Notes: generated by a model from the sequence alone, not told the origin. DNA of 64,000 bases from Blastocatellia bacterium (GCA_046331525.1 JAXLQQ010000020.1:178-64177), one strand, 5' to 3'; positions 1,861 through 25,181 are shown, counted from the first letter of the stretch. A program made the numbers and translations.

Positions 1861-1994
1861 TGCAACATTTGCTCAAGCGGATACTAGGTAGACACGCTTT
1901 GTTTTTCGTGTAGTCGGTACTCAATCTGTTGAAAACGTAAATAAAAGAGAAGACAGAGAGTTAGGGGGCTTACGTGAATTGGTGCTTGGTTTTG

Positions 1995-2013
1995 GTGGTC
2001 AATGATTGACCAC
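1995..2013. promoter_or_regulatory. Perfect 9-1-9 palindrome GTGGTCAATgATTGACCAC, a candidate activator binding site upstream of RHS-1
   Basis: Exact reverse-complement symmetry read from the sequence. It lies about 110 nt upstream of a -24/-12-like element at 2123-2138 (TGGCTCGCCAGTTGAC). Confidence 0.3.
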
Positions 2014-2382
2014 TTTGCATGAATTTAAGAATCACTTTCCGCTTGCGAAAGCATCGTTAAAACTTTTTATCTTCCTTGCTTGCCATAAGTTAAAACAAAA
2101 ATCCAGACCAGGGGACAAACCGTGGCTCGCCAGTTGACTAGCAGAGGGGCGGAGTCATCACGAAATCTGACAACATTGCCAAGCTGACCCCCCATCAATC
2201 GGAGCGGCTTCAGCAAAAATGCTTCAATCAAACCTGTTTTGGTGAAGCTGCCAACGCATAACACGTTGCATCACGTAACGGCAGAGAGCCTGTCGCACGG
2301 TTCCACAATTTCTTTGAGACCAGTTCGTTGCCTATTTCGGGGAAAGGCCCGTTGTCGCTTCCCTTTTTTACCAGAGGTTTCC

Positions 2383-8300: not shown

Positions 8301-8670
8301 TTTTGGGCAAAAGGTCTTCAATCTTATGTTTGGTTATGGGAATTATGGGGGGGCTGGACATCCTCCTGATGGTGCATTCGACCCTCAAGCCGGTCAGTTT
8401 AATCCTGATACCCCTGGAATTGATAGTGTTGATAATAGGTTTAAGGGACACGATAAGCGGTATCGAACTGCTGGCTACAGCAAGTTAAAAGCCGATGTCA
8501 TTTTAGTAGGAGGTCTCTTCTTTTCGTCTCCAAGACTGCATGCTTCAGACATCGCGTTTTCAGGACAATTTAGAGGCCGACCAGGCTCTGGAAGTGTGTA
8601 TAAATTTGTAGCTACTGCTGCCTTTACGGGAATGGCGATTGGGAGAGGCACTGCGAAAGCCTTCAAATAA
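2383..8670 (+). CDS. RHS/YD-repeat polymorphic toxin 1: N-terminal hydrophobic anchor or signal, Big_2-like Ig domain, YD-repeat shell, RHS core, PLA2-like C-terminal tip
   Basis: Numerous YD-type repeats (YxYDxxGNL/R, e.g. YSYNTLGNLT, FKYDNRGNLI, YEYDTLGR). Core end motif YVGNDPINRTDPDGL at 7852-7866. Ig-like segment around 2827-3085. The ATG at 2383 has a GAGG 5 nt upstream; the ATG at 2503 is an alternative start just before the hydrophobic segment LMLCVVLLANPILA. Confidence 0.9.
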   Translation: MRKITHCLLTPAQTLIVKMSCLGHALNTTMRRLSGWRENKMHAVAPQHARHIHWQSISLWRRAISLMLCVVLLANPILAMPQGVLILSNEFRYSLAFYWYNSGLAAKFNAWFQKPAAVQDTRGWDGKGAPPNTPPEPSVQEKQANRDVKVSKIEISPRDVTIHTGEKAVFAAVAYDKDGNLVPGVKFIWDGSDEDRKRKMSVSPRGIFTSPVPGNYKVTVEALNKRDSVKVTVIGEKLNPKDPGVKGEPISTSDKPKAKISRNTIETPMQRIGGAAPTVPDESNLLKKTSATELAQVGRKGTRYAAKPMAVTAAVQGGNYDYYQWNGGNYTEADDPGRERGDMAGHAADGGAGSGNFQFSAPITGLDGRGIDLNLVLNYNSRIWHKSGSDMYFDIDGDYIPGWTFGFGRIVTAGNGYMLIEADGTRHSYGGNPWSYSAPNTSLQGFDGYTKDGSYINYWARGYRPQYGSYILDAWAKLPNGTKIIYGASANLGAYPTQITDANGNYITITYVNNQGPQIDTITDTLGRQIKFKYVDLLVGSVYKKVVVAVTVPGFNGGADRVIARYAYDTKSLTDSGSNYGFSGVTCRVQNATIARLKAIYYPATNTGYWFGDSDSYSTYGMLRKISERRGMACSNPDVTTAEANITNSGVMSREVVYEHTSQAGYSNTSGPLTDVPTYNQTTEDWSGRHASAPHNIPKPVTEYNVTTNSSTITTRITRRDTSSSDGLTTEQITDNNTSSQTYGLLLEDTTFPTKTSSTVLHKSKVYWEVPDLNTYPSHYGAPRPNHTEVTDERGQMTSTYYTYGVNYNQVADVREYGYNNQFLRRTHTDYINTTPYIGYWSNNPYGSYFGRHIYSLVSAVSVYASENDDSVRVSRTEYQYDQQSGQQLYNTPDVPQHELVSDPYDPGYQICDWVWNGWDYDYICNTYYTYDSGTDKRGNITSVKRYADALNVPNDPLALTETRNYDICGNLITAAPACCEQTVYTYSIDTKYTWPSSVTHGLISDASQRNTISTVYDLNTGLVTTAYNPNGLYSTTTYNASTLRPTFEYGFRSSSSQPVGYTYHEYYDNTSNNDMAIIDFSYESGLNGASWANRVDKYLDGKGRVGAEIGFTAGYEMDVVATIYDQFGRVKTQSRPYRLNTSWGLVGTQEWTNFNYDVQDRITSEVAPDGSISYRYYNETSYPSGATPGGQTIRLKDAWGRERWARSDEQNRLVEVVEPAPNGDGTVASNGLITTYSYNTLGNLTGVNQGGQTRSFKFDSLGRMTNQKLAERQATLTDSGGDGSTWSDYFKYDNRGNLIQRIDARRVKTNFDYGSDPLNRLQSVSYDKSNALDATNIKDAATVSYTYENTSSKDKTRLLSISLTAVNGLPTDFGNQSFGYDSEGRLSSLTQKYGNSRNATTSYEYDTLGRTKKIFYPAQQGQTGNPIREGTLTYDLASRSQSLTYNSTAMANNPVYNPSSQTTQLDVGGAIQEQYTFDPQTGLLTNQKVKQGSTTHMDLSYDYNNLYTGTGQNSTWKTGQLSKIVDNKNNERNRQFTYDKLSRLKEAKGGSSFTLWSQTYSYDNWGNRTGVAGSGFAATIPANTIAIGSDGLTSVTYDTATNRITSGSFSYDAAGNQTQANENGLVNNYKYDTAGRLAEVTNNAGTHTYAYGTSNQRLQSVEGSNTTLYTWEGGSVIAEYNGAGTGMTWTKSYVYLGARLLAVESPLSVNSTEIQYQHPDRLGTRLVTNTAGGIVSENIGLPFGNIIAGESTNIGGSATKKRFTTYDRSDTTTLDYAVNRNYSAAQGRFTQVDPIGINASSLENPQSLNLYAYVGNDPINRTDPDGLFWKEIGNFFKKVGKFFSKVGEVIGRVLNNRWVRIGVFLLGFFMPGLKLISAALAKVVNVALKVYNFVADVGAQLQLYGMLFQGKFKELGLSLANGLVGNAISNLIDPIIGGVQKALFDPKFDELADLFVGGWKGFKQAWQNLGNSFGQKVFNLMFGYGNYGGAGHPPDGAFDPQAGQFNPDTPGIDSVDNRFKGHDKRYRTAGYSKLKADVILVGGLFFSSPRLHASDIAFSGQFRGRPGSGSVYKFVATAAFTGMAIGRGTAKAFK

Positions 8671-8686
8671 AGGGGGGGAAGGTTCG

Positions 8687-8822
8687 TGCGAATTTCATTG
8701 AGGTCGGTAGGCGTAATGATATACTGACAATCGTGGCAACATTGGATTGACTTAGATCAATCGCGGTGGGCATCGGAACTGCTCAATTTTCGTTTGTTCG
8801 CTCTCTCAATGAAATTCGCACC
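8687..8822. repeat. Perfect 17-bp inverted repeat (GTGCGAATTTCATTGAG / CTCAATGAAATTCGCAC) enclosing about 100 nt, between the RHS-1 stop and the WD40 gene
   Basis: Arms at 8687-8703 and 8806-8822 are exact reverse complements. There is an inner small stem GATTGA..TCAATC. Confidence 0.7.
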
Positions 8823-8907
8823 ATTATTCAATGATTCATCACAACTCGGAATCATTATTACAGTTAAAAAGATAACCCTGCCTTTAATTTAACAGAGGGA
8901 TTTTACA

Positions 8908-10236
8908 ATGCAGTATTCAATTAGTATTGTCCTTTCTTGCCTAGTGATATTTTGTTTTATGCCGATGAGGGAAAAGTCATCAGTTATACGGAATTCTGAT
9001 TCAGATGCTACTTTGCCCTTTATGCAGCAACATCGAGAAAACACGTCAGATCAGATCACCTTGCGCCAAACTCTTCCAGACTCTTCGGAAAATCTTGAGG
9101 CCGCCTATATGCGACTGGGATTTAGCCCTGATGGGAGGACGCTCATCACAGGGCCAGCCCATAAGGAGGCAAAAGTATGGGATGTATTGTCTGGAAAGTT
9201 AGTGGTGGCTTTGAAGGGGAAAAGCACGGGTTCTGTAGCCAGCTATAGCCCGGACGGAAAATATGTCATTACTGCACCAGGAAAAGACCTTGTAATATGG
9301 AATGCTCAAACGGGAGAGTTAATCAAAAAAATATCGGCTGTCGGAGGTATCCAGGCGGTGGGTGGGATAATAAAGGTTCAATATACTGCGAATGGTAGTT
9401 ACCTTCTTGGTACAGATGGCACTTGTCGTGGGACAGTTGTTGATCTAACGGCAATGAGTAAAATTAAAGAGATCATGCCGAAGAGTTTTCTCGGTAAGAA
9501 TAACTATGAAAATGGAGCATTAAGCCTTAGCCCTGACGGTCAGACTGTACTTGGCGTTTGTGGTGGCAACTCAAAGATTAGGCTTTATGCGATTCAGACA
9601 GGAAAGGAACTCAAAACTTTTCCGGCACACCAAGGAACATACGCGGATGGAACGGATTTCTACGAAACGCACAGTGTCATGTTTCTTCCAGACGGAAGAC
9701 GCTTTGTGACATTAGGAATCGGAGGAATGAAGCTGTGGGATGTAGCAACAGGGCAGCAATTAACCAACTTTGCCAAGCATCGCAGCACAATCTACGATGT
9801 ATTTTTGAGTCCTGATACGAAGTTGTTAGGCGCGGTCAGCCGCGATGGAACGGCGATTCTTTGGGATTGGGAGCAGGGAAAAGAGAAACATACTTTTTCT
9901 GGCTATAAAAGTTTTGTTTCTCGACTTGCTTTTAGTTCAGATGGGAAGATTATAGCAGCAGGCGGAAAAGAGGTAAGAGCCTGGGATGTAGAAACAGGTA
10001 GGTTATTAACCTCAATTGATAATAAAGAGCAAGAAGTTAAAGAACTTATATTTACCAAGCAAGGAGAATGGTTAATTGTCTCCGACGAAAAGAAAGTTAC
10101 TGTTTGGAATCCACAAAGCGGTGTCTTGGTTAGAGAGTTGGGTAATGCGCGTGCGCCTATAGCTATTAGTGCTGATGGAAAAATATTGGCAACACGCGGG
10201 ATGCAAAAAGATGTTTTACTATGGGATTTACAATAA
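8908..10236 (+). CDS. WD40 beta-propeller repeat protein with an N-terminal hydrophobic anchor or signal
   Basis: Repeated blade-end motifs KVWDV, VIWNA, KLWDV, ILWDW, RAWDV, TVWNP, LLWDL. N-terminus is ISIVLSCLVIFCF. GAGGGA RBS before the ATG. The gene is visibly AT-rich. Confidence 0.85.
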   Translation: MQYSISIVLSCLVIFCFMPMREKSSVIRNSDSDATLPFMQQHRENTSDQITLRQTLPDSSENLEAAYMRLGFSPDGRTLITGPAHKEAKVWDVLSGKLVVALKGKSTGSVASYSPDGKYVITAPGKDLVIWNAQTGELIKKISAVGGIQAVGGIIKVQYTANGSYLLGTDGTCRGTVVDLTAMSKIKEIMPKSFLGKNNYENGALSLSPDGQTVLGVCGGNSKIRLYAIQTGKELKTFPAHQGTYADGTDFYETHSVMFLPDGRRFVTLGIGGMKLWDVATGQQLTNFAKHRSTIYDVFLSPDTKLLGAVSRDGTAILWDWEQGKEKHTFSGYKSFVSRLAFSSDGKIIAAGGKEVRAWDVETGRLLTSIDNKEQEVKELIFTKQGEWLIVSDEKKVTVWNPQSGVLVRELGNARAPIAISADGKILATRGMQKDVLLWDLQ

Positions 10237-10363
10237 ACCTGTTTAGCTATAAGAGTTGTAGACTTGCCCGTGTCTGAAATCAACTAGACTTTTCCTCTGC
10301 CTCTACACGTCTCACATAAAATAATCGGTGGGAGTAGTGTGCGCAGACCAAGAGAGGTTATCT

Positions 10364-10789
10364 ATGTCCCTCACGATGACGACCAGCCCTAAGCTGCTCC
10401 GACATGCACTTTCATCCTCTAAAAGCAGCCAAAACTTATCTGCTCCTTTGCTCGTTCCGCGTGATTGGCGAGTGCAAAAAGTCATCAAGCGATTGCTCAA
10501 TAATTTACACCAGCCGCATTACCGCGACAATCTGGCAGAAACAGTGAGTCTTTGTCCAAAACAATTGACGCGGGTGTTTCGGCAGCAGACTGGCTTCACG
10601 CCACTGCAATATCTGAAGCGGTTGCGTTTGGAAGAGGCGAAAGACCTGTTGGCAGACTTCACGCTGAGTATTCAGGAAGTGTTACAGCAAGTTGGCTATG
10701 AAAATGCAAGTCAGTTTAGTGCTGATTTTAAGCACGCTTTTGGTCGCACGCCGCGCCAATACCGACAATTAGTGCTGAGCCATCAGTGA
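10364..10789 (+). CDS. AraC/XylS-family transcriptional regulator with essentially only the HTH domain
   Basis: Dual HTH signature: LAETVSLCPKQLTRVFRQQTGFTPLQYLKRLRLEEAKDLL and GYENASQFSADFKHAFGRTPRQYR. There is no room for a ligand-binding domain. Confidence 0.8.
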   Translation: MSLTMTTSPKLLRHALSSSKSSQNLSAPLLVPRDWRVQKVIKRLLNNLHQPHYRDNLAETVSLCPKQLTRVFRQQTGFTPLQYLKRLRLEEAKDLLADFTLSIQEVLQQVGYENASQFSADFKHAFGRTPRQYRQLVLSHQ

Positions 10790-10790
10790 A

Positions 10791-10840
10791 ATGTCCTTTT
10801 TTTGTTAGTGATGTCCATTTTTTGTTAGAAATAGTGTCCC
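10791..10840. repeat. Roughly 20-nt direct repeat (ATGTCC-T-rich-GTTAG, 2 copies plus a partial copy) immediately after the AraC stop
   Basis: Sequence is atgtcctttttttgttagtg atgtccattttttgttagaa atagtgtcc. An ACCACA..TGTGGT stem follows. Confidence 0.5.
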
Positions 10841-11038
10841 AAACCACAATAAAACTGTGGTAGCGTTTTGGGCGTCATCTGGTAGATAAAGTTCACGAGT
10901 CCACAGTTGCACTCTCATTGCAAGAATGCCGACTGTCGTCCTCGCTCTCGACAAAATTCATTTCTTCCTGTGTGGGCAATTCGCGCTCACGTCAGGAATC
11001 GTGTGTCCAGCTTCTGCGGCTGGGGCGAAAGGATTTCT

Positions 11039-11509
11039 ATGCCATTTTCATTTCGACGTTTGTCTAAAACACAATTGATTGCGCTGGGGGTTATAGCTGT
11101 ACTGGGGATTGCCGTCTTTGGGGTTAGCGAGAAACTCAAATTGGCCAATACCCCTGCTCCTGTTGCACGAGCGCGGCAGATAGAGCCTCCACAGAATCAG
11201 TCTCAACCACCCCGCTCCAAGCTGGAATCGGAAGTGATTGTGCTGCGAGAGCGCGGCTTTGAGCCTTTTGAAATTACTCGTCCGACAGGAACCTTTGCTT
11301 TAACCGTGGACACTCGAATTGGGGGCAGAAATGCTGATCTTGTTTTGAGTCAAGTTGCAGGCGAGAAAGTTCGTGAGGTGAAGCTACCAGTCGGCAAGAG
11401 AGCTTGGAGAGAACAAATCAATCTGCCACCAGGAAGATATATCTTGACGGTTGCCAACCAACCGAATGCGATTTGCAAGATTACGATCACACCGCCGCGC
11501 CCCTCTTAA
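11039..11509 (+). CDS. Hypothetical membrane-anchored protein upstream of RHS-2
   Basis: The N-terminal TM segment LIALGVIAVLGIAVFGV is followed by a P/Q-rich linker and a roughly 100-aa beta-rich segment. No family was recognised. Confidence 0.55.
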   Translation: MPFSFRRLSKTQLIALGVIAVLGIAVFGVSEKLKLANTPAPVARARQIEPPQNQSQPPRSKLESEVIVLRERGFEPFEITRPTGTFALTVDTRIGGRNADLVLSQVAGEKVREVKLPVGKRAWREQINLPPGRYILTVANQPNAICKITITPPRPS

Positions 11510-11579
11510 CGTTGGCAGCAAGGTCTAAGATAACCTCACTTTCCTAATGTAACGCTGATTCATCTACTTGGAGTTTTTT

Positions 11580-14500
11580 ATGTTGCTCTTCAGCTATTTT
11601 GAAAAATACGGCACTGTTGTTCGTCTGAAAACTATAGGACTCATTCTTCTCTGTTTATTTGGCGTTACAGACCACACCTACGCGCAATATGATAAAACCG
11701 CCGGCGTCACACCGAGCTTACTGACTCCGGGTACACCTGCGGGAACATACCCCTTAGAAGGATTCGATACAGTAAATTTATACAATGGGAACATGAACTT
11801 CAGTCTGCCCCTCCTCACGATCAAAGGCCGTGGCAGTGTCAGTCACACGATTAACTTGCGAATTGAGCAGCGTTGGCAATTAGATGGTTATTTCGCTTCG
11901 CAAGGGATTTACACGCCGATGGCACATTGGTGGACTGGGATTGAACCTGGGTATGGGCCGGGCACAATGGAGGGCAGGTATCTCAATGACCCCTGTGGTG
12001 ATCCAGTCTATAGCGGACAGCAAATCACGCGACTCTACTTCACCACGCCTGATGGAACCGAGATTGAGTTTCGTGATCAAGAGAGTCGGGGCGAAACAAA
12101 ACTTGGCAACTGTTATCCGCATGGCATCTATAGCCCTACTTTCAACCGCAAAAAAATATTTAATGCAGTGGACGGTTCAGCCGCGACGTTTATTTCCGAT
12201 ACGGACATTTACGACTGGAATGGGATTGGCGACACATATATTTTTCCAACCGGAAACTTGATGTGGCGTGATGGCACTATGTACCGCATAGTAAATGGTC
12301 AGGTGAGTTGGATGCGGGATCGTAATGGCAATCGTTTGGAATGTAATGGGAATGTATTTAAGGATTCTTTGAATCGTGAAGTCACAATTACCACGCACCC
12401 TCAAAGCCCTGCCCCAAACTATTATGATAAAATTACCTACCGGGGGAATGATGGTGCCATCCGGGAAATTAAAATTTGGTATAAACCCTTGGAAGATATT
12501 TTACGGGCCGATTATCAGGTTGGGACGGCTCCTTATACGCGAACCTACGATCAATTATTTGGCTTGGGAAGTTCCCAGACTCGGCATAATCCGTTGAAAG
12601 CGGCGTCGGTCGAATTGCCGAATGGAAAAAGTTACCAGTTTTATTACAATCCTTATGGCGAGTTAGCGCGTGTAGTATTACCTACTGGCGGTGCTTACGA
12701 ATATGACTGGATGGGTTATATTAGTGGCAATCCTGACATCATCCGGCGCGTGGCAGAAAAACGAGTCTATCCGACAGGTGGGCAGGGAACAGCTTTCTCG
12801 GTGAAAACGATTTTTTCCGATAATCAGACTCCAACCGGGACAAATTCCTGGTTCTTCACCGAACAGCGCGATGCTGCCAACAATTTGCTGGCCCACAGCA
12901 AGCATTACTTTTACTATAATTCCGTTAGTTCCACATACCTTTGGACTCCGTTTCAAAACAGGCCATACGACGAAGGACGCGAAAATAAAACAGAGGTTTA
13001 CAACACCTCTGGCAGCAACGTGTCGAACATGCTGCGAGAAACAAGTCAAGTGTGGACAGCTAGTTTTTGGGGGGCGGCTCCTTCGTCGGACACGCGCATC
13101 AGTGAGAAGGTAACAACGTTATCTGACATCAGTCCCAATCTCGTCTCAAAAGAGACTTACAGTTATGACGCCTATAACAATAAGACGGACATCTATGAAT
13201 ACAATTTTGGAGCGGGAAATTATGGAACTCTTATCCGGCGCACGCATACAGACTATGTGACTACCAATAATAGTGCGAATTATGCGACGGCTACCAATAT
13301 TCACTTGCGCGGGCTACCAAGCGTGATACAGGTCTTTGATGCTAACAATATCAAGCGGGCCGAATCGCTCTTAGAATACGATAACTATAATCAAAGTAGT
13401 TCGGATGTCTTCCATGCTGCACTTATCCCGCGCAACAATATCAGTGGGCTGGATAGTATCTTCACGACTAGCTATTACAACCGTGGTAACGTGACAAAAA
13501 CGACGCAAAATCTTCTGGATGTGAATGGAAACGTCACCAGTTCCATCTACAATCATGCCCAATACGACATTGCCGGAAATGTGGTGAAAACGGTTGATCC
13601 ACGCAGCACTACCTCGAATCTTATTACCACAACATTTGAATTCGATGATCGGTTTGGCTATCCCAATGGCGAAGCACAGTCCAACAGTACGCCGCCCGCT
13701 CCTGGCTCGACCTGGCTGAATGGGCAAACGACCTACGCTTTTCCCACCAAAGTCACCAATGCGCTCGGACATATTGCCTACACGCAGGTAGATTATTTCC
13801 TCGGCAAACCCGTTGACACCGAAGACGCGAATAATATCAAGGGAAGTTTGTACTATATTGACGCCTTTGACCGTCCGACCAAAGGTATTCGGGCAGTCGG
13901 CACGGCGCTGCAAAATCAAACGCTCATCACTTACGACGATACGAACCGAATAGTTACGACCACGACGGACAAAGATGCGAACACCGATGGCGCACTGCAA
14001 AGCAAAGCCTTTTATGACGGCTTAGGACGGCTCTATCGGAAGGCCACGTATGAAGGAACGATTCCGGGCTATAGTCAGGCTCAGTGGGCTATTGTGGAAA
14101 CGCACTTTGATGCGCTGGGCCGGGTCTATCGCCGTAGTAACCCTTTCCGCGATGCCTCTCCGATTGTGGCTTTGCCAGGCAATGCGGAATGGACAACTTC
14201 AACTTTTGATGCGCTCAGTCGCGTCCTCACCGTTACTGCGCCAGACAATACGGTGGCGACAACCAGTTACATAGGCAATGAGGTCTTAGCGATTGATCAA
14301 GCGGGCAAACAGCGCAAGAGTGAATCCGATGCGGTTGGAAGACTCGTGAAGGTCTGGGAAGCGCCGAACGATCCAACCAATTTCAACTATCTTACCACCT
14401 ATGCGTATGACACCTTGGATAATCTGACAACTGTTACCCAGGGCGCACAAACGCGCACCTTTGTCTATGATTCGCTCAAGCGTTTGAAACAGGTAACTAA

Positions 14501-17366
14501 TCCTGAGAGCGGGACAACAACTTACACCTACGACAATAATTTCAATTTACTTACTAAGTTAGATGCAAACAGTATCACGACGACCTATGCGTATGATGCG
14601 TTGAATCGGAATACGACTACCAATTATTCCAATACTGCGATCACTCCTGATCTGACGCGCAGCTATGATGGTGCCACCACTGGCAAAGGCCAATACTGGG
14701 AATCCTACGCTGGGGGAGATTTTACGAATGGCAGCAATGTTGAGTACCAGAAGATCAATGCCTACGATGTGCTGGGACGCCCTTTATCTGTCACGCAAAG
14801 ACAAAAGCTGAATGGCACCTGGAGCGCGAGTTTGTACACCACGGCACGCACCTACAATCTGGCTGGCAATGTGCTTTCACAAACCTACCCGTCCGGCAAA
14901 GTCGTGAATTACAGCTACGATCAGGCAGCCCGCCTGACGAGCTTTACCGGGCAATTAGGAGGTATCACAGGGCCGGGTAACACGGATATTAGTTATGCAA
15001 ATAACATCAAATACAACGCGCGTAGCCAGATGATCCGTGAGACTTTTGGCACGACGACAAATCTTTATCATCGCAACTACTACAATCGGCGGGGGCAACT
15101 GTTTGACGCCCGGCTCGGCACGGATAGCAACACAGCTTACGATGTTGAGAATCCAGTGGTTTGGCGTTGGGCAACGGGAACATGGAATCGTGGAGCGATC
15201 CGGCTGAATTACAGTAGCACGGGAAATGATTATGAGGATTATACGACCACCAATGGCGCGTTGGTGAACAACAATGGCAATGTGTATCGCATGGATCATT
15301 TCATTCCCGATAACGACAGCGTGACCTCCTGGAAAATGAATGCCAATTACTATAATTATGACGCGCTTAATCGTTTGCAGTGGGTGCAGGAAAATCAGGT
15401 CAATAATGGCGCAGAAACGGTAGCTTATAAACAAACCAATTCGTATGATCGCTGGGGCAATCGCACGATAGATCAAAGCAATACCTGGGCGATGGATGGA
15501 AATGTTTGGGTGGAGGATAGTCTTCCAAGCAGTGCGGTAGCAGTAGGTGATAACGACGGTTGGAATTGGGTGACCGCCGCTCCGACACCGTTCTCCGGGT
15601 CGTCAAGTCACCAATCCAGCACTGTCGCTGGAGTCCACCAACATTACTTTTATGGAGCAACAAATACGCTGACGCTTACGGCCAGTGATAGTCTGTATGC
15701 GTGGGTTTATCTTGACCCGACGAACCCGCCCACAGAGGTGATGTTGCAATGGAACAACGGCGACTGGGAGCATCGCGCCTATTGGGGGGCTGATCAGATT
15801 GGCTGGGGAGTGAACAATACCAACAGCCGTCGTTATGTGGGAGCGTTACCAGCAACCGGTGGTTGGGTGCGCTTGGAAGTCCCGGCTTCCGCCGTGGGCT
15901 TAGTCGGCAGCACCCTGAATGGAATGGCCTTCACTTTATATGGCGGTAAAGCAACGTGGGATCGGGCCGGCAAGACTGCTCTTATAGGGGGCGGAATTAA
16001 CAAAGAGAAGTACACCGTAGACGCGACAAATAACCGCTTCACGGAACTCACCTATTATGCGTCAGGGGCTGTCAAGGGCGAAAAGACGACTGGGACGGGA
16101 CGGATGGAGTATCAATACGATGCCGAAAATCGTGTCATCGCTTACGGGTATAATATTGTTACGACCCCCGGCAATCCGGTGACCAGTCGCTATTTCTATG
16201 ATGCCGATGGTAATCGCACACGAAAGATCGTGAGTGGCACGGAAACCTGGTTTGTTTATGGATTGGACGGTGAATTGGTGGCAGAGTACAATGCCAACGG
16301 CGCGGTGGGAAGCCCGCAGAAAGAATACGGCTACCGTAGCGGACAATTGTTAGTGGTGTATGACACCACAGAAACGACGGCGGACAAGAAGCTACAATGG
16401 ATGGTGACGGATCACCTCGGAACGCCGCGTATGGTCATTGACAAGACAGGTAGCCTGAGTGGAGTAAAACGACACGATTACCTCCCCTTCGGCGAAGAGC
16501 TTGGAGCAGGTGTGGGATTACGAAGCGCGGGAAACGGCTACACGGCGGATCAAGTGCGACAGAAGTTTACAGGGTATGAGCGGGATACGGAGACCGGACT
16601 GGATTATGCGCAGGCGCGGATGTATGCGAATGTGCAGGGGCGGTTTACTAGCCCTGATCCACTACTTGAAAGTGGGCGGCCCGAAGACGCACAATCTTGG
16701 AATCGGTACGCATACGCCCGCAACAACCCGCTCGCTTATATCGACCCGACAGGACTGAATTATGAGCATCTCAAGGGGCGGCAAAAAGATTTGATTGATC
16801 AATGGGCTGCTGCTCAGAATAAGGCGAACAAAACCAATATTAGTGCAGAAGCGATGTACAATGGACTTACCGAATCACAGAGAAGTACCTATGAATCCGT
16901 GACGCACGCGATGATGAACACCCAGCTCAAAGATGATAAAGGGAATTCCCTCGGCAATGCGTTGGATGCTGTCCAAAGCATAACTTCTATTGCTGGCGAC
17001 TCCAAAGATGGCGGTGCCCCGAAAGACGCGAAATCGGATCAACAGTTCCGAGTGTATGTAGAAATAAAGAGCGGCAAAGAGTTGATTGCTGGCTCCGTAC
17101 AGTTCGATAGCGGGCGTAATAAGGGTGGGCTTCACGAGGGCTATCCTTTGAGCTTCCGGCTCAAGGGAGGAGTGCCAAGTCTTCAGGTCTCAATGAGCGA
17201 GGACTTTAGGCGGGGAGATAATGATGTAGATTATCTTCCGAAATGGCACCCTTTGCATCTTACCAAGGCTAATTCTGACATTCGCGATGGCAATAACTAC
17301 AAGAACCATACCAAACGTTTTGGGCCAGGCTTGGTAAACTGGTGGGAGAAAAAGAAGAAGAAATGA
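11580..17366 (+). CDS. RHS/YD-repeat polymorphic toxin 2 with signal peptide, non-YD insertion and an unrecognised C-terminal toxin tip
   Basis: Signal-like N-terminus (LILLCLFGVTDHTYAQ). Many YD repeats (YAYDTLDNLT, FVYDSLKRL, YTYDNNFNLL, YAYDALNR). Core end motif YARNNPLAYIDPTGL at 16743-16757. GGAG lies 6 nt before the ATG at 11580. Confidence 0.9.
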   Translation: MLLFSYFEKYGTVVRLKTIGLILLCLFGVTDHTYAQYDKTAGVTPSLLTPGTPAGTYPLEGFDTVNLYNGNMNFSLPLLTIKGRGSVSHTINLRIEQRWQLDGYFASQGIYTPMAHWWTGIEPGYGPGTMEGRYLNDPCGDPVYSGQQITRLYFTTPDGTEIEFRDQESRGETKLGNCYPHGIYSPTFNRKKIFNAVDGSAATFISDTDIYDWNGIGDTYIFPTGNLMWRDGTMYRIVNGQVSWMRDRNGNRLECNGNVFKDSLNREVTITTHPQSPAPNYYDKITYRGNDGAIREIKIWYKPLEDILRADYQVGTAPYTRTYDQLFGLGSSQTRHNPLKAASVELPNGKSYQFYYNPYGELARVVLPTGGAYEYDWMGYISGNPDIIRRVAEKRVYPTGGQGTAFSVKTIFSDNQTPTGTNSWFFTEQRDAANNLLAHSKHYFYYNSVSSTYLWTPFQNRPYDEGRENKTEVYNTSGSNVSNMLRETSQVWTASFWGAAPSSDTRISEKVTTLSDISPNLVSKETYSYDAYNNKTDIYEYNFGAGNYGTLIRRTHTDYVTTNNSANYATATNIHLRGLPSVIQVFDANNIKRAESLLEYDNYNQSSSDVFHAALIPRNNISGLDSIFTTSYYNRGNVTKTTQNLLDVNGNVTSSIYNHAQYDIAGNVVKTVDPRSTTSNLITTTFEFDDRFGYPNGEAQSNSTPPAPGSTWLNGQTTYAFPTKVTNALGHIAYTQVDYFLGKPVDTEDANNIKGSLYYIDAFDRPTKGIRAVGTALQNQTLITYDDTNRIVTTTTDKDANTDGALQSKAFYDGLGRLYRKATYEGTIPGYSQAQWAIVETHFDALGRVYRRSNPFRDASPIVALPGNAEWTTSTFDALSRVLTVTAPDNTVATTSYIGNEVLAIDQAGKQRKSESDAVGRLVKVWEAPNDPTNFNYLTTYAYDTLDNLTTVTQGAQTRTFVYDSLKRLKQVTNPESGTTTYTYDNNFNLLTKLDANSITTTYAYDALNRNTTTNYSNTAITPDLTRSYDGATTGKGQYWESYAGGDFTNGSNVEYQKINAYDVLGRPLSVTQRQKLNGTWSASLYTTARTYNLAGNVLSQTYPSGKVVNYSYDQAARLTSFTGQLGGITGPGNTDISYANNIKYNARSQMIRETFGTTTNLYHRNYYNRRGQLFDARLGTDSNTAYDVENPVVWRWATGTWNRGAIRLNYSSTGNDYEDYTTTNGALVNNNGNVYRMDHFIPDNDSVTSWKMNANYYNYDALNRLQWVQENQVNNGAETVAYKQTNSYDRWGNRTIDQSNTWAMDGNVWVEDSLPSSAVAVGDNDGWNWVTAAPTPFSGSSSHQSSTVAGVHQHYFYGATNTLTLTASDSLYAWVYLDPTNPPTEVMLQWNNGDWEHRAYWGADQIGWGVNNTNSRRYVGALPATGGWVRLEVPASAVGLVGSTLNGMAFTLYGGKATWDRAGKTALIGGGINKEKYTVDATNNRFTELTYYASGAVKGEKTTGTGRMEYQYDAENRVIAYGYNIVTTPGNPVTSRYFYDADGNRTRKIVSGTETWFVYGLDGELVAEYNANGAVGSPQKEYGYRSGQLLVVYDTTETTADKKLQWMVTDHLGTPRMVIDKTGSLSGVKRHDYLPFGEELGAGVGLRSAGNGYTADQVRQKFTGYERDTETGLDYAQARMYANVQGRFTSPDPLLESGRPEDAQSWNRYAYARNNPLAYIDPTGLNYEHLKGRQKDLIDQWAAAQNKANKTNISAEAMYNGLTESQRSTYESVTHAMMNTQLKDDKGNSLGNALDAVQSITSIAGDSKDGGAPKDAKSDQQFRVYVEIKSGKELIAGSVQFDSGRNKGGLHEGYPLSFRLKGGVPSLQVSMSEDFRRGDNDVDYLPKWHPLHLTKANSDIRDGNNYKNHTKRFGPGLVNWWEKKKKK

Positions 17367-17935
17367 TTAAACTGATTCTTGAGAGGCTTGTTTTACTGTT
17401 GCTAATGTCGGGCGTTGTGGTTCCAGCGACGGCGCAGAATAATGCGCTGAAGAAGGCTGACCAGCAGGCAGAAGTCGCCGTGCGATCCTTTCTTAACATC
17501 TGGTTGGTTGACAGAGATGTGAAGCGTGCCACTGGCTACCTCAGCACTGATAAGAACTTGTGTGCGCCCACAGAAATGCCGGACTCTTTTCAGCTAACTG
17601 CAAGATCGACGGCTCTGACCACGCTCAGGAAAAACCTTCGTCGTCCGCTGAAATGGATGTCTAGGCGGAAATCACTGTCAGCAGCGATTTCCGCTTTTCC
17701 CTCTGATCGCCAATCAGTAGATGGTGGCGTTTTGGTGAATAACAGCCCTGAATTCAGACTGTTTCGAGTTACCGAGAGGGTCTTAAATAATTGTAAGGCA
17801 CCGGTGAATAGTCCTCTATATGAGGCTGTATTCACCTTCGGGTTGGGGCCAGATCGCGGTGCCGGGATGTACTTCGTATTTCATAAAGAACGAGAACAAT
17901 GGAGAATTGTTTTGTACGATTGGCTTGCGCAGTAG
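17363..17935 (+). CDS. Secreted NTF2-like protein, candidate immunity protein for the RHS-2 tip
   Basis: Its ATG overlaps the RHS-2 TGA in an ATGA overlap at 17363-17366. Signal peptide is MIKLILERLVLLLLMSGVVVPATAQ. The segment AEVAVRSFLNIWLVDRDVKRATGYLS resembles NTF2/SnoaL-like folds. Confidence 0.65.
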   Translation: MIKLILERLVLLLLMSGVVVPATAQNNALKKADQQAEVAVRSFLNIWLVDRDVKRATGYLSTDKNLCAPTEMPDSFQLTARSTALTTLRKNLRRPLKWMSRRKSLSAAISAFPSDRQSVDGGVLVNNSPEFRLFRVTERVLNNCKAPVNSPLYEAVFTFGLGPDRGAGMYFVFHKEREQWRIVLYDWLAQ

Positions 17936-18016
17936 GGCGAGACGGCCTTATCAACAAGCAGGCCAAACTTGCTCTCCCTCACCGCTGATGAACTGCTACG
18001 GGGCATAGATCACTCA

Positions 18017-18330
18017 TTAGCGCAATAGATAAAGATTTGCGCGCCCATACATCTGCCGTTTGAGCAGTTTCAAGCGATTCAACCACCCTTCGCTTTGCCC
18101 GTTACTTCACTACTGAAGACAGTGGCTGTCGGACTATCGCTTCATCCGTCTTCAGGCTGGCCGCAAAGCTGGCTTATTCGGGAACGCTACTTTCCTGTAC
18201 GCGCTGCCACCAAGGATCAAAGTCGCGTTCCGCGCGCTTGTTGACAATTCCTGCGCCAATGTTTGCGTCTGCGCGAATTCGCACTGGCTTTGCACCAGTG
18301 CTTGCATCATTAAAGAATCAGCCTTCCCAG
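18017..18330 (-). pseudogene. ISL3-family-like transposase C-terminal remnant
   Basis: The minus strand of 18017-18100 translates to GQSEGWLNRLKLLKRQMYGRANLYLLR-stop, the typical C-terminal signature of ISL3-type DDE transposases. An in-frame stop lies just upstream. Further upstream similarity continues in another frame (the 18152-18433 ORF). Confidence 0.5.
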
Positions 18331-19275
18331 TCAAAACGCTATCCGCAGTTGTCTGCGATTCGGGAATCCCTCGACATACTCCGAGACCCAAGCGGACAGC
18401 GGCTCCGCCGAATGCCCAAGATAGTCTTTGCACATCGGCAGAATCCGTTTCTTCTCGTCCAGGTAGAGCTTGTCCAAGAACGCAAAGAAACTCTGCGGTG
18501 GATTAGCGAGAACCGTGCAAGCTTCGGTTAGCCCTGCGTGGAAAACGTGATTCTGTTTCTTCAGCGCGAGCGTCCATTTCTTTTGGGCAAGCAGGTAGAG
18601 TGAAGCGGCGAAGAACGTGGTGTCGAGAAACGCTTCAAAATTGAGATTTGTCAGAAACGAGCCGTCTTTCTGTTGTTGCCCCCATCCACAGAACGCCATC
18701 ACCTGTTGGCTGACCAATAGTTCGTTCGCTTCCGTCACCGTCTGCCTCTCCATCTGCGTCCAATCACAACCGCAGGCACAAATCGTCAACGACGTGCGAT
18801 CCCAATAGAGACGCTTCCGACACATCGGACATCTGTCCATCAACAGCAACTGATGCTTCAGGCAAACCGTCACATGTGCCAAGTCCCAATACCAGCGGTG
18901 ATGTGGGCTTTCGGCCAGACACGCAGGGCAGAATTTTGGGTACTTGAATTTGATATATCTGACGGGGATTCGGGCCACCCCAAGTGTCACCCATTGTCCA
19001 TCATCCTGATAGCAGATTCGCTGAAATCTGGCTTCGTCATACCCTGTTGCCTGCGCTAAACCTGACAGATCAGGGCAACAACGGGAAGAAACGCGGCCCT
19101 CTGTCGGTTCTATCGTCCAATGCAACGCCGCCTCAATTTCCTTGATCCCCGCGTACCCATTGTCTTCGGCGAGGCGCAGCAAATAGCCCATCAAAGTTTC
19201 GTCAGGAGCAAGATGGGGAATGACGAGGAAGCGGGCGGCAGGGCTGCTTTGCGCAGAACTCGAACTACTGGTCAT
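18331..19275 (-). CDS. tniQ: TniQ/TnsD-family (Tn7-like transposition targeting) protein; orphan, and possibly C-terminally truncated by the adjacent IS remnant
   Basis: N-terminal TniQ signature PHLAPDETLMGYLLRLAEDNGY and zinc-ribbon pattern CPACL..x..CLKH..x..CPMC. No tnsA/B/C gene is present nearby. Confidence 0.8.
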   Translation of the reverse strand: MTSSSSSAQSSPAARFLVIPHLAPDETLMGYLLRLAEDNGYAGIKEIEAALHWTIEPTEGRVSSRCCPDLSGLAQATGYDEARFQRICYQDDGQWVTLGVARIPVRYIKFKYPKFCPACLAESPHHRWYWDLAHVTVCLKHQLLLMDRCPMCRKRLYWDRTSLTICACGCDWTQMERQTVTEANELLVSQQVMAFCGWGQQQKDGSFLTNLNFEAFLDTTFFAASLYLLAQKKWTLALKKQNHVFHAGLTEACTVLANPPQSFFAFLDKLYLDEKKRILPMCKDYLGHSAEPLSAWVSEYVEGFPNRRQLRIAF

Positions 19276-19410
19276 GAGCTTACCAGAGAGGGCTGGTTAG
19301 TTGCTGTCAGTAGTTTCGTTGACGGGGCGTCAGATAAAGCAGAACAAAGATACGCGAAAACTTACTATAGGAAAAGACGCGATAAGAATTATCGGAAAGA
19401 AAATATTGCC

Positions 19411-19444
19411 TAAAAAAAGGATACCGAAAGGGGGGCGGTATCCT
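19411..19444 (-). terminator. Rho-independent terminator after the small ORF
   Basis: On the minus strand, a 9-bp stem AGGATACCG/CGGTATCCT with a 9-nt loop is followed by a T7 tract. Confidence 0.6.
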
Positions 19445-19462
19445 TACCGTGCTGCAACACAA

Positions 19463-19648
19463 TCATCCGCCAAGGTGGTGTGCAACCAGATAAATCAGCT
19501 TCAGCAGAATCACAATCAGTTCAACGAAACTTAGGATTATGGTGTAACGCTTTATCTGGAAGTGCAGTTTATCTGATGCCGGACACTCCAATTCCAAGTG
19601 TTCCTCGTCCATCTTAGTCAATATACGTTCTAATATTTTTTTGAACAT
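19463..19648 (-). CDS. Small (61 aa) tail-anchored hydrophobic peptide, unknown function
   Basis: AAGGAG lies 7 nt upstream of the ATG at 19648. The C-terminal hydrophobic segment is IILSFVELIVILLKLIYLVA. It has its own terminator. Confidence 0.5.
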   Translation of the reverse strand: MFKKILERILTKMDEEHLELECPASDKLHFQIKRYTIILSFVELIVILLKLIYLVAHHLGG

Positions 19649-20983
19649 AAGTATGCTCCTTTGGAGATTTACTCCATCTATTCTGTTAGTAAAATAGACA
19701 CGTAAAAACCGAAGGCTTGCGTGATGGCAACGGTGCGACTCCAATCACGGAGACACACCAATAGGGTATTGCCAGATGGACTTTCCTGTGGTATCTTATC
19801 AAATGCTACTTCGATAAGATTTTTAGGAGAGTCCGCTGATTTCAAATCACGCGGGCTTTTCTAGTTTTCAGTATCAACTTATCACCACAGACACGATTGC
19901 CCGTGATGCTTCATCAATTCCTCCTTTCCGGCTCAAAGCCGAGAAGAGAACACAGCTATCTCTTGATAGCTCCGCACGAATTTAGGGGGTAAGTGAAACT
20001 CCCAACAGGGGGTGAGTTAGAGGCCGGGCTGAATACTTCTCACCTCAATAGCAACAACCTAGCTTTGGGTGCTAAGTGTCTTTTGAGGACTCGCCAAAAC
20101 CGCCGAAAAAGATTACTGGCTTTGTCCTTCAAAGGCAAGGGCTTTCCACTATTTCTGCAAGTTTTACTTGAGGTCAACTATGGGTTGTAACCTGGAAAGA
20201 TATAGGGCAAGTAGGGACTTCAGAGAGCCTCAGTTTGAAGGTTACTTGCACAACGGTTTCCCCCGTCAATTGATATGAGAGAATAACCCTTCATTGCAAA
20301 TCGCACCCACCGGAAAAGAAGTTGGCCGATCTATCTTTGGTGCGGTGGGAAGACAACATAGATGCAGGAAGTGTTACGGGATATTTGCCGACGCGGGAGA
20401 TATGCACAACTAGCAAGAAAAGAGGTCAATTCGCTGTGACTGCGTTTTTGTCGCTTACTATCCCAGGGGTTACTTCAAGAAAGCACCTGCTGGCGCAAAC
20501 GGCGAGGCTGCTATCGAGCGCGTTTGCTACCGCATCCCAAACAGCAAGGCACAAAGAAATTTTGCTTCGCAATCACCGCCCTTTCGTTCCTTTCCGGCAT
20601 CCCTTTAAGGCCGGAGGGAACGTTATGCTTTATGTGATTGACGGCTTGAAAAACAGTTACCGGAAAGGAGCAACAACTGGCGTTTATGGCAAGGAAGTCG
20701 GCTCAGTTGCAAACAGATTGGGAAGTAGCGGCAAAACGAGGAGATAGTGGCTCCTCGGTTTGCAATCAAACAACAAATTATCTGTACAGTCCTTGCTTTA
20801 GTTCAGGATTGGGTTACTGTATAAGTCCCTAACCGAGAGACTCAAAATGTTTCAACACAGCAGAAATTCCACCACTCCGAAATCGCCGTGGCTGCGTTTT
20901 TTAGATGCCGTCCATATCCGAGGATACCTTTCCAGAGAAGCCCACCACAGAAGCCTTTATTTCATTTATTCGTAGAGCCAGAA

Positions 20984-21017
20984 TCACTTTTTCATGTAGG
21001 AAATTCACTTTTTCATG
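20984..21017. repeat. Tandem 13-nt direct repeat TCACTTTTTCATG with 21-bp period. The second copy encodes the last codons and the stop of comEC.
   Basis: Copies at 20984-20996 and 21005-21017 are identical. Confidence 0.7.
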
Positions 21018-22210
21018 GAACGGATAAGGGGAACCACCACCGTCACAACAATCAGCACGGTAAGAAACGAAAGCTGAAACGCCGGATCGAATAAATCGCG
21101 CGGTTGCCAGGTCAACAACACCAGCGCCGAAGCTGCCAGCGTATTCGCGCCCGGTGCCGTGCGGAAAATGAATTCTCCCAGCAGAACAAACGTCAACATC
21201 ACCATCGCCCGCGTAATCGCCGGTTGCGCGCCCACCATCAACGCATAGCCCCACAACAACGAAAGCACCACCGCCAATCGCACGCCACGCGCTGTGATGA
21301 TCCTGGTTGCCAGCCACGAAATTACCAGCGCCAGCAACGCCACATGCAAACCGGAAATCACGAGCAAGTGATACGTGCCACCCACGCGAAATGCCTCTGC
21401 CGTGTCGTGCGGAAGGAAATATTGATTCCCAAACAGTGCCGCCGCCAGAATCCCTGCGGTGGGCGGCGTAAAGCTGCGCAGCAAAATCGTGATCGCTTGC
21501 GCGCGCACAGCATAAAGCAGGGCCAAGAAGCGCGAAGGCGTGCTTTCGCCCAACCGCTCGATCAACAACGGGCTTTTGATTAAGCCCGTCGCATCGTAGC
21601 CGCGAAATTCCAGCATCTCGTCAAAATTCGGCGCGCCTGGATTGCGGTATCCTTGTGCTTTGCGCAAATTCGCCAGCGCCCGAATCCGCACGCCGTAGCC
21701 AAGCCGCAACGCATCAAAATCTGCGCGATCCTGCGCTGCTGCAAACGGCACGACCAGGCGCACCGTGCCCGAAGCTGCTTGCGCTTTGCCAAGTGTGGCG
21801 ATGCGTTCGATAGCGACTTCCAGATAGATGCGCTCCGGTGCCAGTTCCGGCGCGGTTTGAATAACGCCCCACACCTCGACCGGTTCAGCCGCCTCAATGA
21901 CACCGCGCGCGAAGAGTTGTTTAATACGATGGTGCGCTACGCCTGCGTCATTCAATGACCAGCAGAGGCCGCCGCAGGCGCAGCAGCTTAGCAACAAAAA
22001 ACAAGTGATCCACCCTTCGCGCTGCCAGCGACGAAAGCCAATCAGGGCGAGGGCGGCGGCAAAGAAAATAACCGCAACAAGCAGCCAGGATGAGCGCGCA
22101 AAATGAAGGAAACGTGCGGCAAGCAGTTCGCCCACGATAAAGGCGACCGCCAGAAAAATAAGCGGTTGCTGGCGCACCGTGAGTTGAACGAAGGCGAGGC
22201 GACGAGGCAT
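21005..22210 (-). CDS. comEC: ComEC/Rec2-family competence channel protein, apparently 3-prime truncated
   Basis: N-terminal TM plus OB-like region, then the competence-domain motif HLLVISGLHVALLAL. The ORF stops about 175 aa into that domain, with no further TM helices or metallo-beta-lactamase domain. Confidence 0.8.
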   Translation of the reverse strand: MPRRLAFVQLTVRQQPLIFLAVAFIVGELLAARFLHFARSSWLLVAVIFFAAALALIGFRRWQREGWITCFLLLSCCACGGLCWSLNDAGVAHHRIKQLFARGVIEAAEPVEVWGVIQTAPELAPERIYLEVAIERIATLGKAQAASGTVRLVVPFAAAQDRADFDALRLGYGVRIRALANLRKAQGYRNPGAPNFDEMLEFRGYDATGLIKSPLLIERLGESTPSRFLALLYAVRAQAITILLRSFTPPTAGILAAALFGNQYFLPHDTAEAFRVGGTYHLLVISGLHVALLALVISWLATRIITARGVRLAVVLSLLWGYALMVGAQPAITRAMVMLTFVLLGEFIFRTAPGANTLAASALVLLTWQPRDLFDPAFQLSFLTVLIVVTVVVPLIRSMKK

Positions 22211-22302
22211 AAGGATTTAGGCGACAGGCGGCTACCCTGTCGCCGATTGTATACAGCTTGGGTTATTCTTTGACAGCAACGGGCGGCTAACCAGTTGTGT
22301 CT

Positions 22303-23485
22303 CTAATTTGCGGACAACTTTATGACTGTTTCTATGTGATAGGTTTGCGGAAACATATCCAGTGCAGTGATGGTGGTCAGTCGATAGCCACCCTGCGTCA
22401 ATATCTTTAAATCACGCGCCAACGTGGTCGGATCGCACGAAACATAACGAATGACGGTTGGTTTGTGTTGCAATAAGCGGCGGATCACCGGCTCGCCTGC
22501 GCCCGCGCGCGGTGGATCGAGTAGTACAAAATCCGGGCGCGGCAGCTTCGGTTGCTTAAGCCAGGTTTCGACCGAAACGGCTTCGTAGCGAATGTTCTGC
22601 ACCTTATTGCGTTCGGCATTGGCAAGGCCGTGACGAACCGAAAGGCGGCTGCCTTCAACGGCATACACCTGGTCGAAATGCCGAGCGAGCGGCAACGAAA
22701 ACAAACCGGCTCCGGCATACAGGTCAAAGGCGATGCGGCCTTTTGCTTCGTCCGTTGCCTCGCACACAAGCTGTTCGACCAGTAACCGATTGGCCTGAAA
22801 AAACGTGCGCACGCCGAAGCGATAGTTAAAGCCGAGAATCGTTTGCTCCACGGTGCCGCGCGCATCTACTTCTGCCGTGCGCGCGTTTTCGCCGGTAGCG
22901 GGGGTGGCCAGTACTTCGGTATCGCCTGCGGTCAAGTAAACGCGCGTTGCGCTCTTGGGAATGTTTTGCGTGCGCAACGTTTGCAGCTTGTCCTGCGCCG
23001 TCGGTAATAAAATCGGGCATTCCGTCACTTCACAAAGGTCGTGCGAGTTGGCTTGAAAATAGCCGAGCCTGCCATCTGGCGTGCGCTTGAGTTCAGCGCG
23101 CGAACGGTAGCCGAATTCGTCTGCTGCCAAAACTTCAATGTCCTGCTCCCACACGATGCCGCCGATGCGGCGCAGCGATTCGCGGATGATGTCGGCTTTG
23201 CTTTGGCATTGTGCGGCGTAATCCAAATGCTGCAACTGACAACCGCCACAGATACCGAAGTGACGGCACGGCGCGCTGCGGCGATGCGGCGAAGGGACGA
23301 TAATCTCTTCTATTACGCCGCGCGCAGAAATTGCGTTCAAGTTTCGTGACCCGCACGCGTAAGCGATCTCCGGGCGCGGCAAACGGAACGAAGACCGTTT
23401 GCTGATTTACGCGCCCCAGGCCGTCACCGCCGTAAATCAGTTTTTCAATCGTGATTTCGTAAATGTCTCCGAGGCGCAGATTCAT
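22303..23485 (-). CDS. rlmD: 23S rRNA (uracil-5)-methyltransferase RlmD/RumA family, with an apparent frameshift between the TRAM domain and the Fe-S/methyltransferase part
   Basis: The TRAM domain (GDIYEITIEKLIYGGDGLGRV..VRVTKLERNF) is in one frame. ARGVIEEIIVPSPHRRSAPCRHFGICGGCQLQH and the SAM-MTase motifs are in another. The junction is near 23320-23340. Confidence 0.85.
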
Positions 23486-25082: not shown

Positions 25083-25181
25083 AAGATTTTCAGGAAGTCG
25101 CGCCGTTGTTTTTCAACGAGCCAGCATCTTACCAAGCAGGAGGAAAATGCGGCAAGAGCAGCGGAGGCCGGACGGAGAAGC

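Follow-up and report, generated by a model that had tools for sequence, protein, structure and literature searches.

How does a competence gene come to be cut midway where it borders a toxin island, with an intact tniQ gene standing alone beside it? The question is raised by an uncultured wastewater Blastocatellia genome, of which we analyzed one stretch of 64,000 nucleotides (the window). Here comEC is reduced to a stump of 401 aa (21005–22210, minus strand) at the edge of an island whose body is formed by the RHS-2 toxin gene and an overlapping downstream partner gene (11568–17935, plus strand). Between the two lie tniQ (18331–19275, minus strand) and, upstream of tniQ, a small ORF of 61 aa without a family match above threshold (19463–19648, minus strand). 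The first-pass annotation had read this arrangement as the trace of a Tn7-like element that once inserted at comEC and then lost tnsA, tnsB and tnsC, and the geometry it described is correct: both genes are on the minus strand, 1729 nt separate the start of tniQ from the stop codon of comEC, and the transcription of tniQ points away from the stump.

The stump is a truncated member of the ComEC/Rec2 family. It is assigned as truncated because it retains only DUF4131 and positions 2–144 of 270 of the Competence domain (Pfam) and scores below the TIGR00361 cut-off; it lacks the metallo-beta-lactamase domain and the remainder of the channel domain. The premature end inside the Competence domain, already noted on first inspection, holds up against intact genes: open comEC frames are ∼850–1340 aa long in thirteen genomes of the same genus and ∼17 further relatives, with a single shorter frame that lies at a contig end (G007, 583 aa), and the gene is uncut in all 13 other species of the genus. 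Comparison with these relatives places the breakpoint after codon 401, since homology stops at ..VVVPLI/RSMKK-stop in the window and the relatives go on ..VPLLDRLKRLGEWQPS... The matches to comEC that were listed for ∼400 class genomes, a tally that included the unpublished genomes G204, G296, G720, G736 and G141, showed no such cut either. Four short frames from this set were inspected and rejected as insertions: G242 and G202 have frameshifts, the remainder of the gene lying directly downstream, and in G184 and G741 the frame runs to the end of its contig.

We read the locus as the right-hand edge of an island of insertion type that lies within comEC. Synteny and base composition both switch at the cut. 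The 5′ flank of comEC (rlmD, coaX, birA) is syntenic with four relatives in the genus; left of 21005, in the left 21 kb of the window, there is no synteny with relatives, the tetranucleotide distance is at the 97.5–99.5th percentile, and the GC content is 0.46–0.50 versus 0.549 genome-wide. The contig that carries the window (C20) ends 177 nt beyond the left end of the window, and 21 kb of the island is visible. No recombinase was seen in this visible part and no cas gene or CRISPR array at the locus, neither the Rfam nor the tRNA scan returned a match in the region, and the promoter and terminator scans of the region gave nothing above shuffled background.

An edge of this kind could also arise with no insertion at all, if a simple deletion or rearrangement, with the ISL3 copy as its possible trigger, had fused the RHS region to the middle of comEC. 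Mobile-element debris is present, a 13-nt repeat at the junction (described below) could be a microhomology scar, and the genes that follow comEC in relatives, up to gyrA, are absent from the assembly. However, gyrA runs off the end of another contig (C10) and the 3′ half of this essential gene is missing, so the missing block is at least partly an assembly gap and not a deletion. The assembly is 67% complete, and neither the start of C20 nor the end of C10 overlaps any other contig end. Moreover, a random deletion would not hit one codon twice, in orthologs that have diverged and whose frames are both open, and we regard this explanation as very unlikely.

Such a recurrence is in fact observed. 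An ortholog known from a metagenome protein record (P0007) is 76% identical to the stump, with 86% positives, over all 401 residues without gaps, and its C-terminus, ..IRSMKK, has the same end residues. A shared end at this divergence argues that the cut, of which the window and P0007 are the only two instances, is reproducible rather than a product of chance decay or misassembly. When neutral substitution to 76% identity was simulated, both frames were open in ∼35 of 3000 simulations, so that the cut must be of recent date and repeated, or else maintained by selection. The orientation of tniQ fits an orientation-specific insertion at this cut.

The two truncated genes might instead descend from one old insertion, inherited by both lineages, with the 5′ half of comEC still in use, either as a shortened protein or through excision of the island, which would restore comEC, as with the intervening elements of sigK and comK. 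The shared end point, the 401 open codons at 76% identity and the rarity with which neutral decay leaves both frames open would all fit, and the homologs of tniQ are similarly diverged (57–75% identity). However, the comEC 3′ half is not found in the assembly, the gene is uncut throughout the rest of the genus, half a channel domain would be unlikely to work, and island-side parts recur in other studies with 0–2 differences, which suggests recent spread. Inheritance of an old insertion therefore seems improbable to us.

Contig C20 might also be a chimera of two genomes, formed in binning or assembly with its joint near 21005–21056. A public contig from the probable source run covers 5566–21056 and ends there, the next one, which has another depth and six base differences, begins at 21027, the composition switches at the same place, and the MAG is incomplete. 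However, the source-run contig crosses the comEC stop codon by 50 nt, contigs from one other study cover the junction region, and P0007 is an independent protein record with the same truncated end; RHS loci across the genus are, in addition, generally low in GC anyway. A chimera is hardly credible in our estimate. Read depth across the 21027–21056 break was dropped as an argument, the depths of the neighbouring contigs being mutually inconsistent. The share of sampled words from 19300–22300 is at most 0.57 in every run but the probable source, which is suggestive only; 0.57 is the fraction of that interval to the left of the junction.

Contigs of three other studies carry parts of the island side with 0–2 differences, and one other-study contig matches the window up to 21014 and then continues with different sequence, which points to a sharp unit boundary. 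In one independent run (X3), where the evidence is tentative at a depth of just 3–5, contig identity begins at 20879 in one record and ends at 21014 in another, outlining a candidate terminal island segment (20879–21014, minus strand). The same run contains a joint from 21014 to 15153 with 12 nt between, and a loose end after 21184 that is not comEC in frame. Runs X3 and X5 have no contig over 21218–22019, and X2 has none over 19213–20816; gaps of this sort carry no weight as evidence.

At the boundary itself there are two exact copies of a 13-nt unit (20984–20996 and 21005–21017, 21 nt apart), of which the right one encodes the ..SMKK-stop end of comEC. A tandem repeat of comparable kind was seen in 4 of 2000 shuffles, and the pair is a candidate for a junction scar or for two tandem end-binding units. 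A search for repeated TnsB-type sites near 20900–21020 had been suggested; the two exact units lie in this interval, but there is no clear third, the next unit in register being barely similar, and no TGT terminus at 21014. The boundary has no array of repeated binding sites, there is no further copy with up to two mismatches in the window or up to one on C20, and the 21 kb to the left yielded no inverted counterpart. A 30-nt match of 20966–20995 to a 698-aa gene in two genomes of the family was set aside as chance, as it lies without extended similarity.

The tniQ gene, by its sequence, is not a decaying relic. Its 314-aa product belongs to the Tn7/Tn5053-type target-selector family, with the zinc-finger Cys/His residues conserved, and matches Pfam PF06527 TniQ (E 2.5e-20, residues 19–145), PADLOC TniQ_IF (E 9.6e-22) and solved CAST TniQ chains in the PDB (E 2e-11). 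Four homologs of 315–321 aa (P0002–P0005) align end to end at 57–75% identity with all zinc-binding Cys/His kept, and together with the window protein they belong to a small family of 314–321 aa. Because the gene is intact and has homologs of equal length, it looks more like a functioning gene that stands by itself than like a relic left behind. An AlphaFold model from five sequences was unusable (mean pLDDT 39.7). More distant relatives in the class, at 30–34% identity, sit in tnsA-tnsB-tnsC-tniQ operons. A conserved chromosomal gene would speak against a mobile origin, but 12 other genomes of the genus yielded no tniQ, which is thus not a core gene. No close tniQ was present in 300 genomes of the class, in 400 of the phylum or in plasmids (best 29.7% identity), and searches of metagenome, genome and viral contigs with tniQ and the homolog alignment as queries gave no related locus. 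The longest contigs recorded for the homologs (44129, 35203, 6426 and 3104 nt) differ from those recorded for cut ComEC proteins, so a link between tniQ and comEC is seen in this window only.

That tniQ stands without tnsA, tnsB or tnsC is correct: no core gene adjoins it. Decayed fragments of these genes were sought in the 1.7-kb spacer between tniQ and comEC (19276–21004), their expected place, but it holds no recognisable protein family, RNA family or tnsA/B/C relic; tblastn with TnsA, TnsB and TnsC against 19276–21000 gave best E-values of 0.2–0.9. There are likewise no relics of the three anywhere in the assembly, at its 67% completeness. Specifically, TnsA (PF08722) has no genome-wide match at E up to 1; for TnsB there is no rve or Mu-transpos_C match on C20, where the island is truncated by the contig end, and four TnsB proteins of the class used as tblastn queries brought no match; for TnsC/TniB (PF05621) the matches are all weak, of general AAA+ type and in other parts of the genome, and there is no tblastn match.

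The missing Tn7 core genes and ends would be expected if the island were of another kind, such as an integrative element with its recombinase past the end of the contig, or an RHS region relocated by recombination, illegitimate or homologous, with tniQ a passenger or a domesticated gene that had no role in the cut. An intact tniQ with a conserved family fits this explanation, as does a second lone TniQ-like gene (645–686 aa) on contig C113, where it is flanked by leuC and a PLD-SNF2 helicase gene and again has no tnsABC. Elements outside the Tn7 family also hit comEC: streptococcal Tn1207.3 and Phi10394.4, which are prophage-like and have recombinases, integrate in this gene. They and the island both interrupt comEC, but the recombinases are theirs and none is visible here. 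Orphan tniQ genes in MAGs have been mentioned before, and were set aside and not studied (bioRxiv 10.1101/2025.07.27.667033). The window gene resembles them in having no accompanying Tn7 components, but it is intact, has relatives of equal length and adjoins a cut, target-like gene. An island of another kind would make the exact match of tniQ position and direction to the Tn7 layout a coincidence, and its recombinase is not in the available 21 kb. We consider it unlikely on balance, although with a substantial share of the probability.

On the other side of tniQ, a 29-codon tail with the signature SNG..EG.N..K..KR..YG (18017–18106, minus strand) is plausibly, from its sequence, the C-terminal remnant of an ISL3-family transposase, with weak matches to positions 209–233 of 240 of PF01610 (E 0.045) and to the ISL3 transposases of family relatives (tblastn, E 0.006–0.05). 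The first-pass annotation had also described an internal stop and a frame change upstream of the tail as part of the same transposase; there is no ISL3 match in 18107–18330, so their attribution to transposase sequence is unsupported. A 21-nt pair, 76% complementary, is found at 17948–17968 and 18227–18247, and no flanking 8-bp duplication of the ISL3 type could be read from the sequence. The suggestion that the RHS genes are former transposon cargo is likewise unsupported: a genus relative carries a sigma-54 activator/AraC/RHS module of the same build at a locus unrelated to this one, and low GC is the rule for RHS loci in the genus.

We tentatively favour, at somewhat less than an even chance, a Tn7-family origin of the island that cuts comEC. 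The island would be, or derive from, a Tn7-family element whose TniQ recognises the highly conserved comEC stretch FQLSFLTV (21056–21079), ∼40–65 nt away from the boundary, and guides insertion to a fixed distance downstream so that the right end adjoins the bound site, as for Tn7 at glmS and Tn6022 in comM. The genes tnsA, tnsB and tnsC may have been deleted from the 1.7-kb spacer or may lie outside the visible 21 kb of the island. The ISL3 tail would be unrelated debris, left by a later IS insertion, with a subsequent deletion altering the 3′ flank of tniQ as well. The cut would abolish DNA uptake, which may shield the island from replacement by recombination. Of the original proposal of a Tn7-like insertion, the cut at a switch of composition and synteny, its recurrence in P0007 and the tniQ orientation speak in favour, while the lack of tnsABC relics and TGT termini, the mere two 13-nt units and a tniQ that is not decaying speak against. 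We see only a small chance for a more far-reaching version, that a TniQ-bearing RHS-toxin island without tnsABC of its own homes into one comEC codon in several Blastocatellia hosts, using a helper transposon in trans or acting as an excisable competence switch.

In Tn7 at attTn7, TnsD binds the 3′ coding end of glmS, and insertion past the stop codon spares the gene. The likeness is that the target gene is transcribed towards the element, with the right end by the bound conserved stretch and the tns genes reading away; the difference is that comEC is cut mid-gene and TnsABC is absent. Tn6022 and AbaR-type Tn7-like islands inactivate comM of Acinetobacter (cited in PMC9881144) and thus offer a Tn7-family element with large cargo inside an inactivated competence gene, but they keep tnsA/B/C-type genes and recognisable ends, whereas the window has tniQ only and the target is comEC. 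This gene is itself the target of a type I-B1 CAST in a cyanobacterium (PMC9881144, Fig. 8), a Tn7-like element predicted without TGT/ACA ends; targeting there is by guide RNA, whereas here no cas genes or CRISPR were seen and the phylum is Acidobacteriota.

That Tn7-like and other elements target competence genes is already known, and bioRxiv 10.1101/2025.07.27.667033 discusses integrating elements with transformation genes as their targets. Should the Tn7 reading prove mistaken, what remains is commonplace debris at an island edge. The recurrent one-codon cut in two diverged hosts is a useful handle, and if the Tn7 reading is true, the comEC of Acidobacteriota would join the short list of competence-gene homing sites for the Tn7 family, with a target selector that outlives its transposase, which would bear on the fixation of such islands.

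The comEC gene of the window (21005-22210, minus strand) retains DUF4131 and only positions 2-144 of the 270 positions of the Competence domain, whereas open comEC frames of approximately 850-1340 aa are found in all 13 congeneric species compared and in further relatives; the lone shorter frame, in the relative G007, sits at a contig end. The premature end inside the Competence domain described in the first-pass annotation therefore stands. In the alignment, homology runs through ..VVVPLI and is followed by RSMKK-stop, where the relatives go on ..LDRLKRLGEWQPS.. instead. To the right of comEC, synteny with four relatives extends through rlmD, a DUF gene, coaX, birA and beyond; to the left of 21005 no ORF matches the genes that follow comEC in those four. 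No comparable cut appears among the matches listed for approximately 400 genomes of the class, and the four short comEC frames inspected there are frameshifts or contig ends. Two family relatives (loci L083, G242:C19, and L084, G202:C16) have a frameshifted comEC with the remaining portion of the gene directly after it, and may represent pseudogenes or sequencing errors.

The assembly (5.78 Mb, 157 contigs, 67% complete) contributes the window as bases 178-64177 of contig C20, and the public run matching it best, the probable source run, is a wastewater metagenome. The names that sources attach to ComEC homologs assign it to Blastocatellia, Acidobacteriota. In relatives, gyrA lies approximately 7-9 kb past comEC. 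Here its 5' half (C10:99204-100319; 95% identity with the G012 ortholog) is cut off by a contig end, and neither the 3' half nor the comEC-gyrA interval of the relatives was found in this 67% complete assembly. Since gyrA is essential and yet incomplete here, an assembly gap accounts for at least part of the missing interval, and, given the spacing in relatives, C10 and C20 probably lie on either side of one gap. In the source run the comEC-rlmD region (22299-23144) also has a second variant, with six differences across 2 kb plus a two-way bubble spanning 23065-23174; the island side shows no variant. At 23326 the public contig of that run is one base short, exactly where a separate first-pass annotation placed a frame break in rlmD; the break may reflect a mistake in assembly or variation between strains instead of a pseudogene. 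Part of the depth shows another one-base difference at 25109.

The same cut is seen in P0007, a ComEC homolog from an independent public metagenome assembly, which is 76% identical to the window protein across all 401 residues with zero gaps. It ends in ..VPFIRSMKK, compared with ..VPLIRSMKK in the window, and no other of the 38 retrieved ComEC homologs has an RSMKK-type ending, so the cut is common to two diverged lineages. For an old cut and a stump free to decay, both frames stay open in approximately 1% of simulations at this divergence with substitutions only, and indels would push the share lower. Thus either both hosts were cut separately at the same site, i.e., by site-specific insertion, or selection has kept the stump; under either alternative, chance decay or a MAG chimera explains the cut poorly.

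The final 13 nt of comEC recur as an exact copy 21 nt further on (4 of 2000 shuffles). A 15.5-kb public contig from the source run equals 5566-21056 with 0 differences and ends at 21056, and the next starts at 21027; the assembly graph therefore branches within 50 nt of the comEC stop. Contigs from three other studies match parts of the RHS toxin gene RHS-2, its partner gene, the ISL3 tail, tniQ and the spacer with 0-2 differences. In an independent low-depth run (X3), the match of one contig ends at 21014, with other sequence after it, and that of another begins at 20879, which tentatively hints that 20879-21014 is a discrete terminal segment with a sharp outer edge. The left 21 kb has atypical composition, a signal tempered by the generally low GC of RHS loci in the genus.

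All RHS genes of the assembly lie within the window; under the Tn7 model of the first-pass annotation they would be former cargo. The order sigma-54 activator, AraC regulator, small ORF and RHS gene (790-17935) recurs at a different locus of a genus relative (G011:C111, L046) with 38-63% protein identity, and looks like a recurring regulatory-plus-toxin module. RHS homologs with 65-77% DNA identity are present in several species. By their build the window's RHS genes appear native to the genus, and the cargo claim is therefore unsupported.

The tniQ gene (18331-19275, minus strand) encodes 314 aa with a full TniQ domain at residues 19-145 (Pfam E 2.5e-20), and matches PADLOC TniQ_IF (E 9.6e-22) and solved CAST TniQ chains (E 2e-11). 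Four metagenome proteins of 315-321 aa, 57-75% identical, align with it from first to last residue, and the zinc-finger Cys/His are all invariant across the five; tniQ is therefore whole, unclipped by the adjoining IS debris. That debris, proposed as an ISL3 remnant, reads as a 29-aa transposase-like tail downstream of tniQ (18017-18106, minus strand) whose C-terminal ISL3 signature survives at low significance (PF01610 E 0.045; tblastn E 0.006-0.05); between it and tniQ there is no ISL3 match. tniQ is not a core gene: 12 further genomes of the genus yielded no copy. Across 300 genomes of the class and 400 of the phylum, its best matches reach 30-34% identity, and these distant relatives are located in canonical tnsA-tnsB-tnsC(TniB)-tniQ operons. 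A second lone TniQ-domain gene of the assembly (645-686 aa, PF06527 E 1e-12; L039, C113:60-4013) adjoins a PLD and SNF2/ResIII helicase gene, truncated where the contig stops, whose product weakly matches PbeA, DpdE and PLD_Helicase in PADLOC; leuC and leuD follow on the opposite strand, and tnsABC is absent from the locus.

The first-pass annotation was right that tniQ stands without tnsA/B/C: relics of TnsA, TnsB or TnsC, for which it suggested a search, are found neither in the spacer (19276-21004) nor in the 67% complete assembly. It also suggested a search for repeated TnsB-type sites near the boundary, which shows only two repeat units and no TGT terminus; no inverted copy was found in the 21 kb to the left. 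The longest contigs recorded for tniQ homologs differ from those recorded for the cut ComEC proteins. A non-Tn7 island with tniQ as a passenger is nearly as likely as a Tn7-derived one. The geometry fits the Tn7 model as proposed: transcription of comEC heads towards the boundary, and that of tniQ, 1.7 kb inside, leads away from it. FQLSFLTV (21056-21079), the coding stretch of comEC with the strongest conservation, is separated from the boundary by 40-65 nt, a distance comparable to the spacing of the TnsD site at glmS. Tentatively, the likeliest reading makes this boundary the margin of an island of Tn7-family descent that inserted into comEC at a fixed site and whose tnsABC either disappeared or lie beyond the visible sequence. 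Precedents are the insertion of Tn6022 in comM and a comEC-targeting CAST (PMC9881144).
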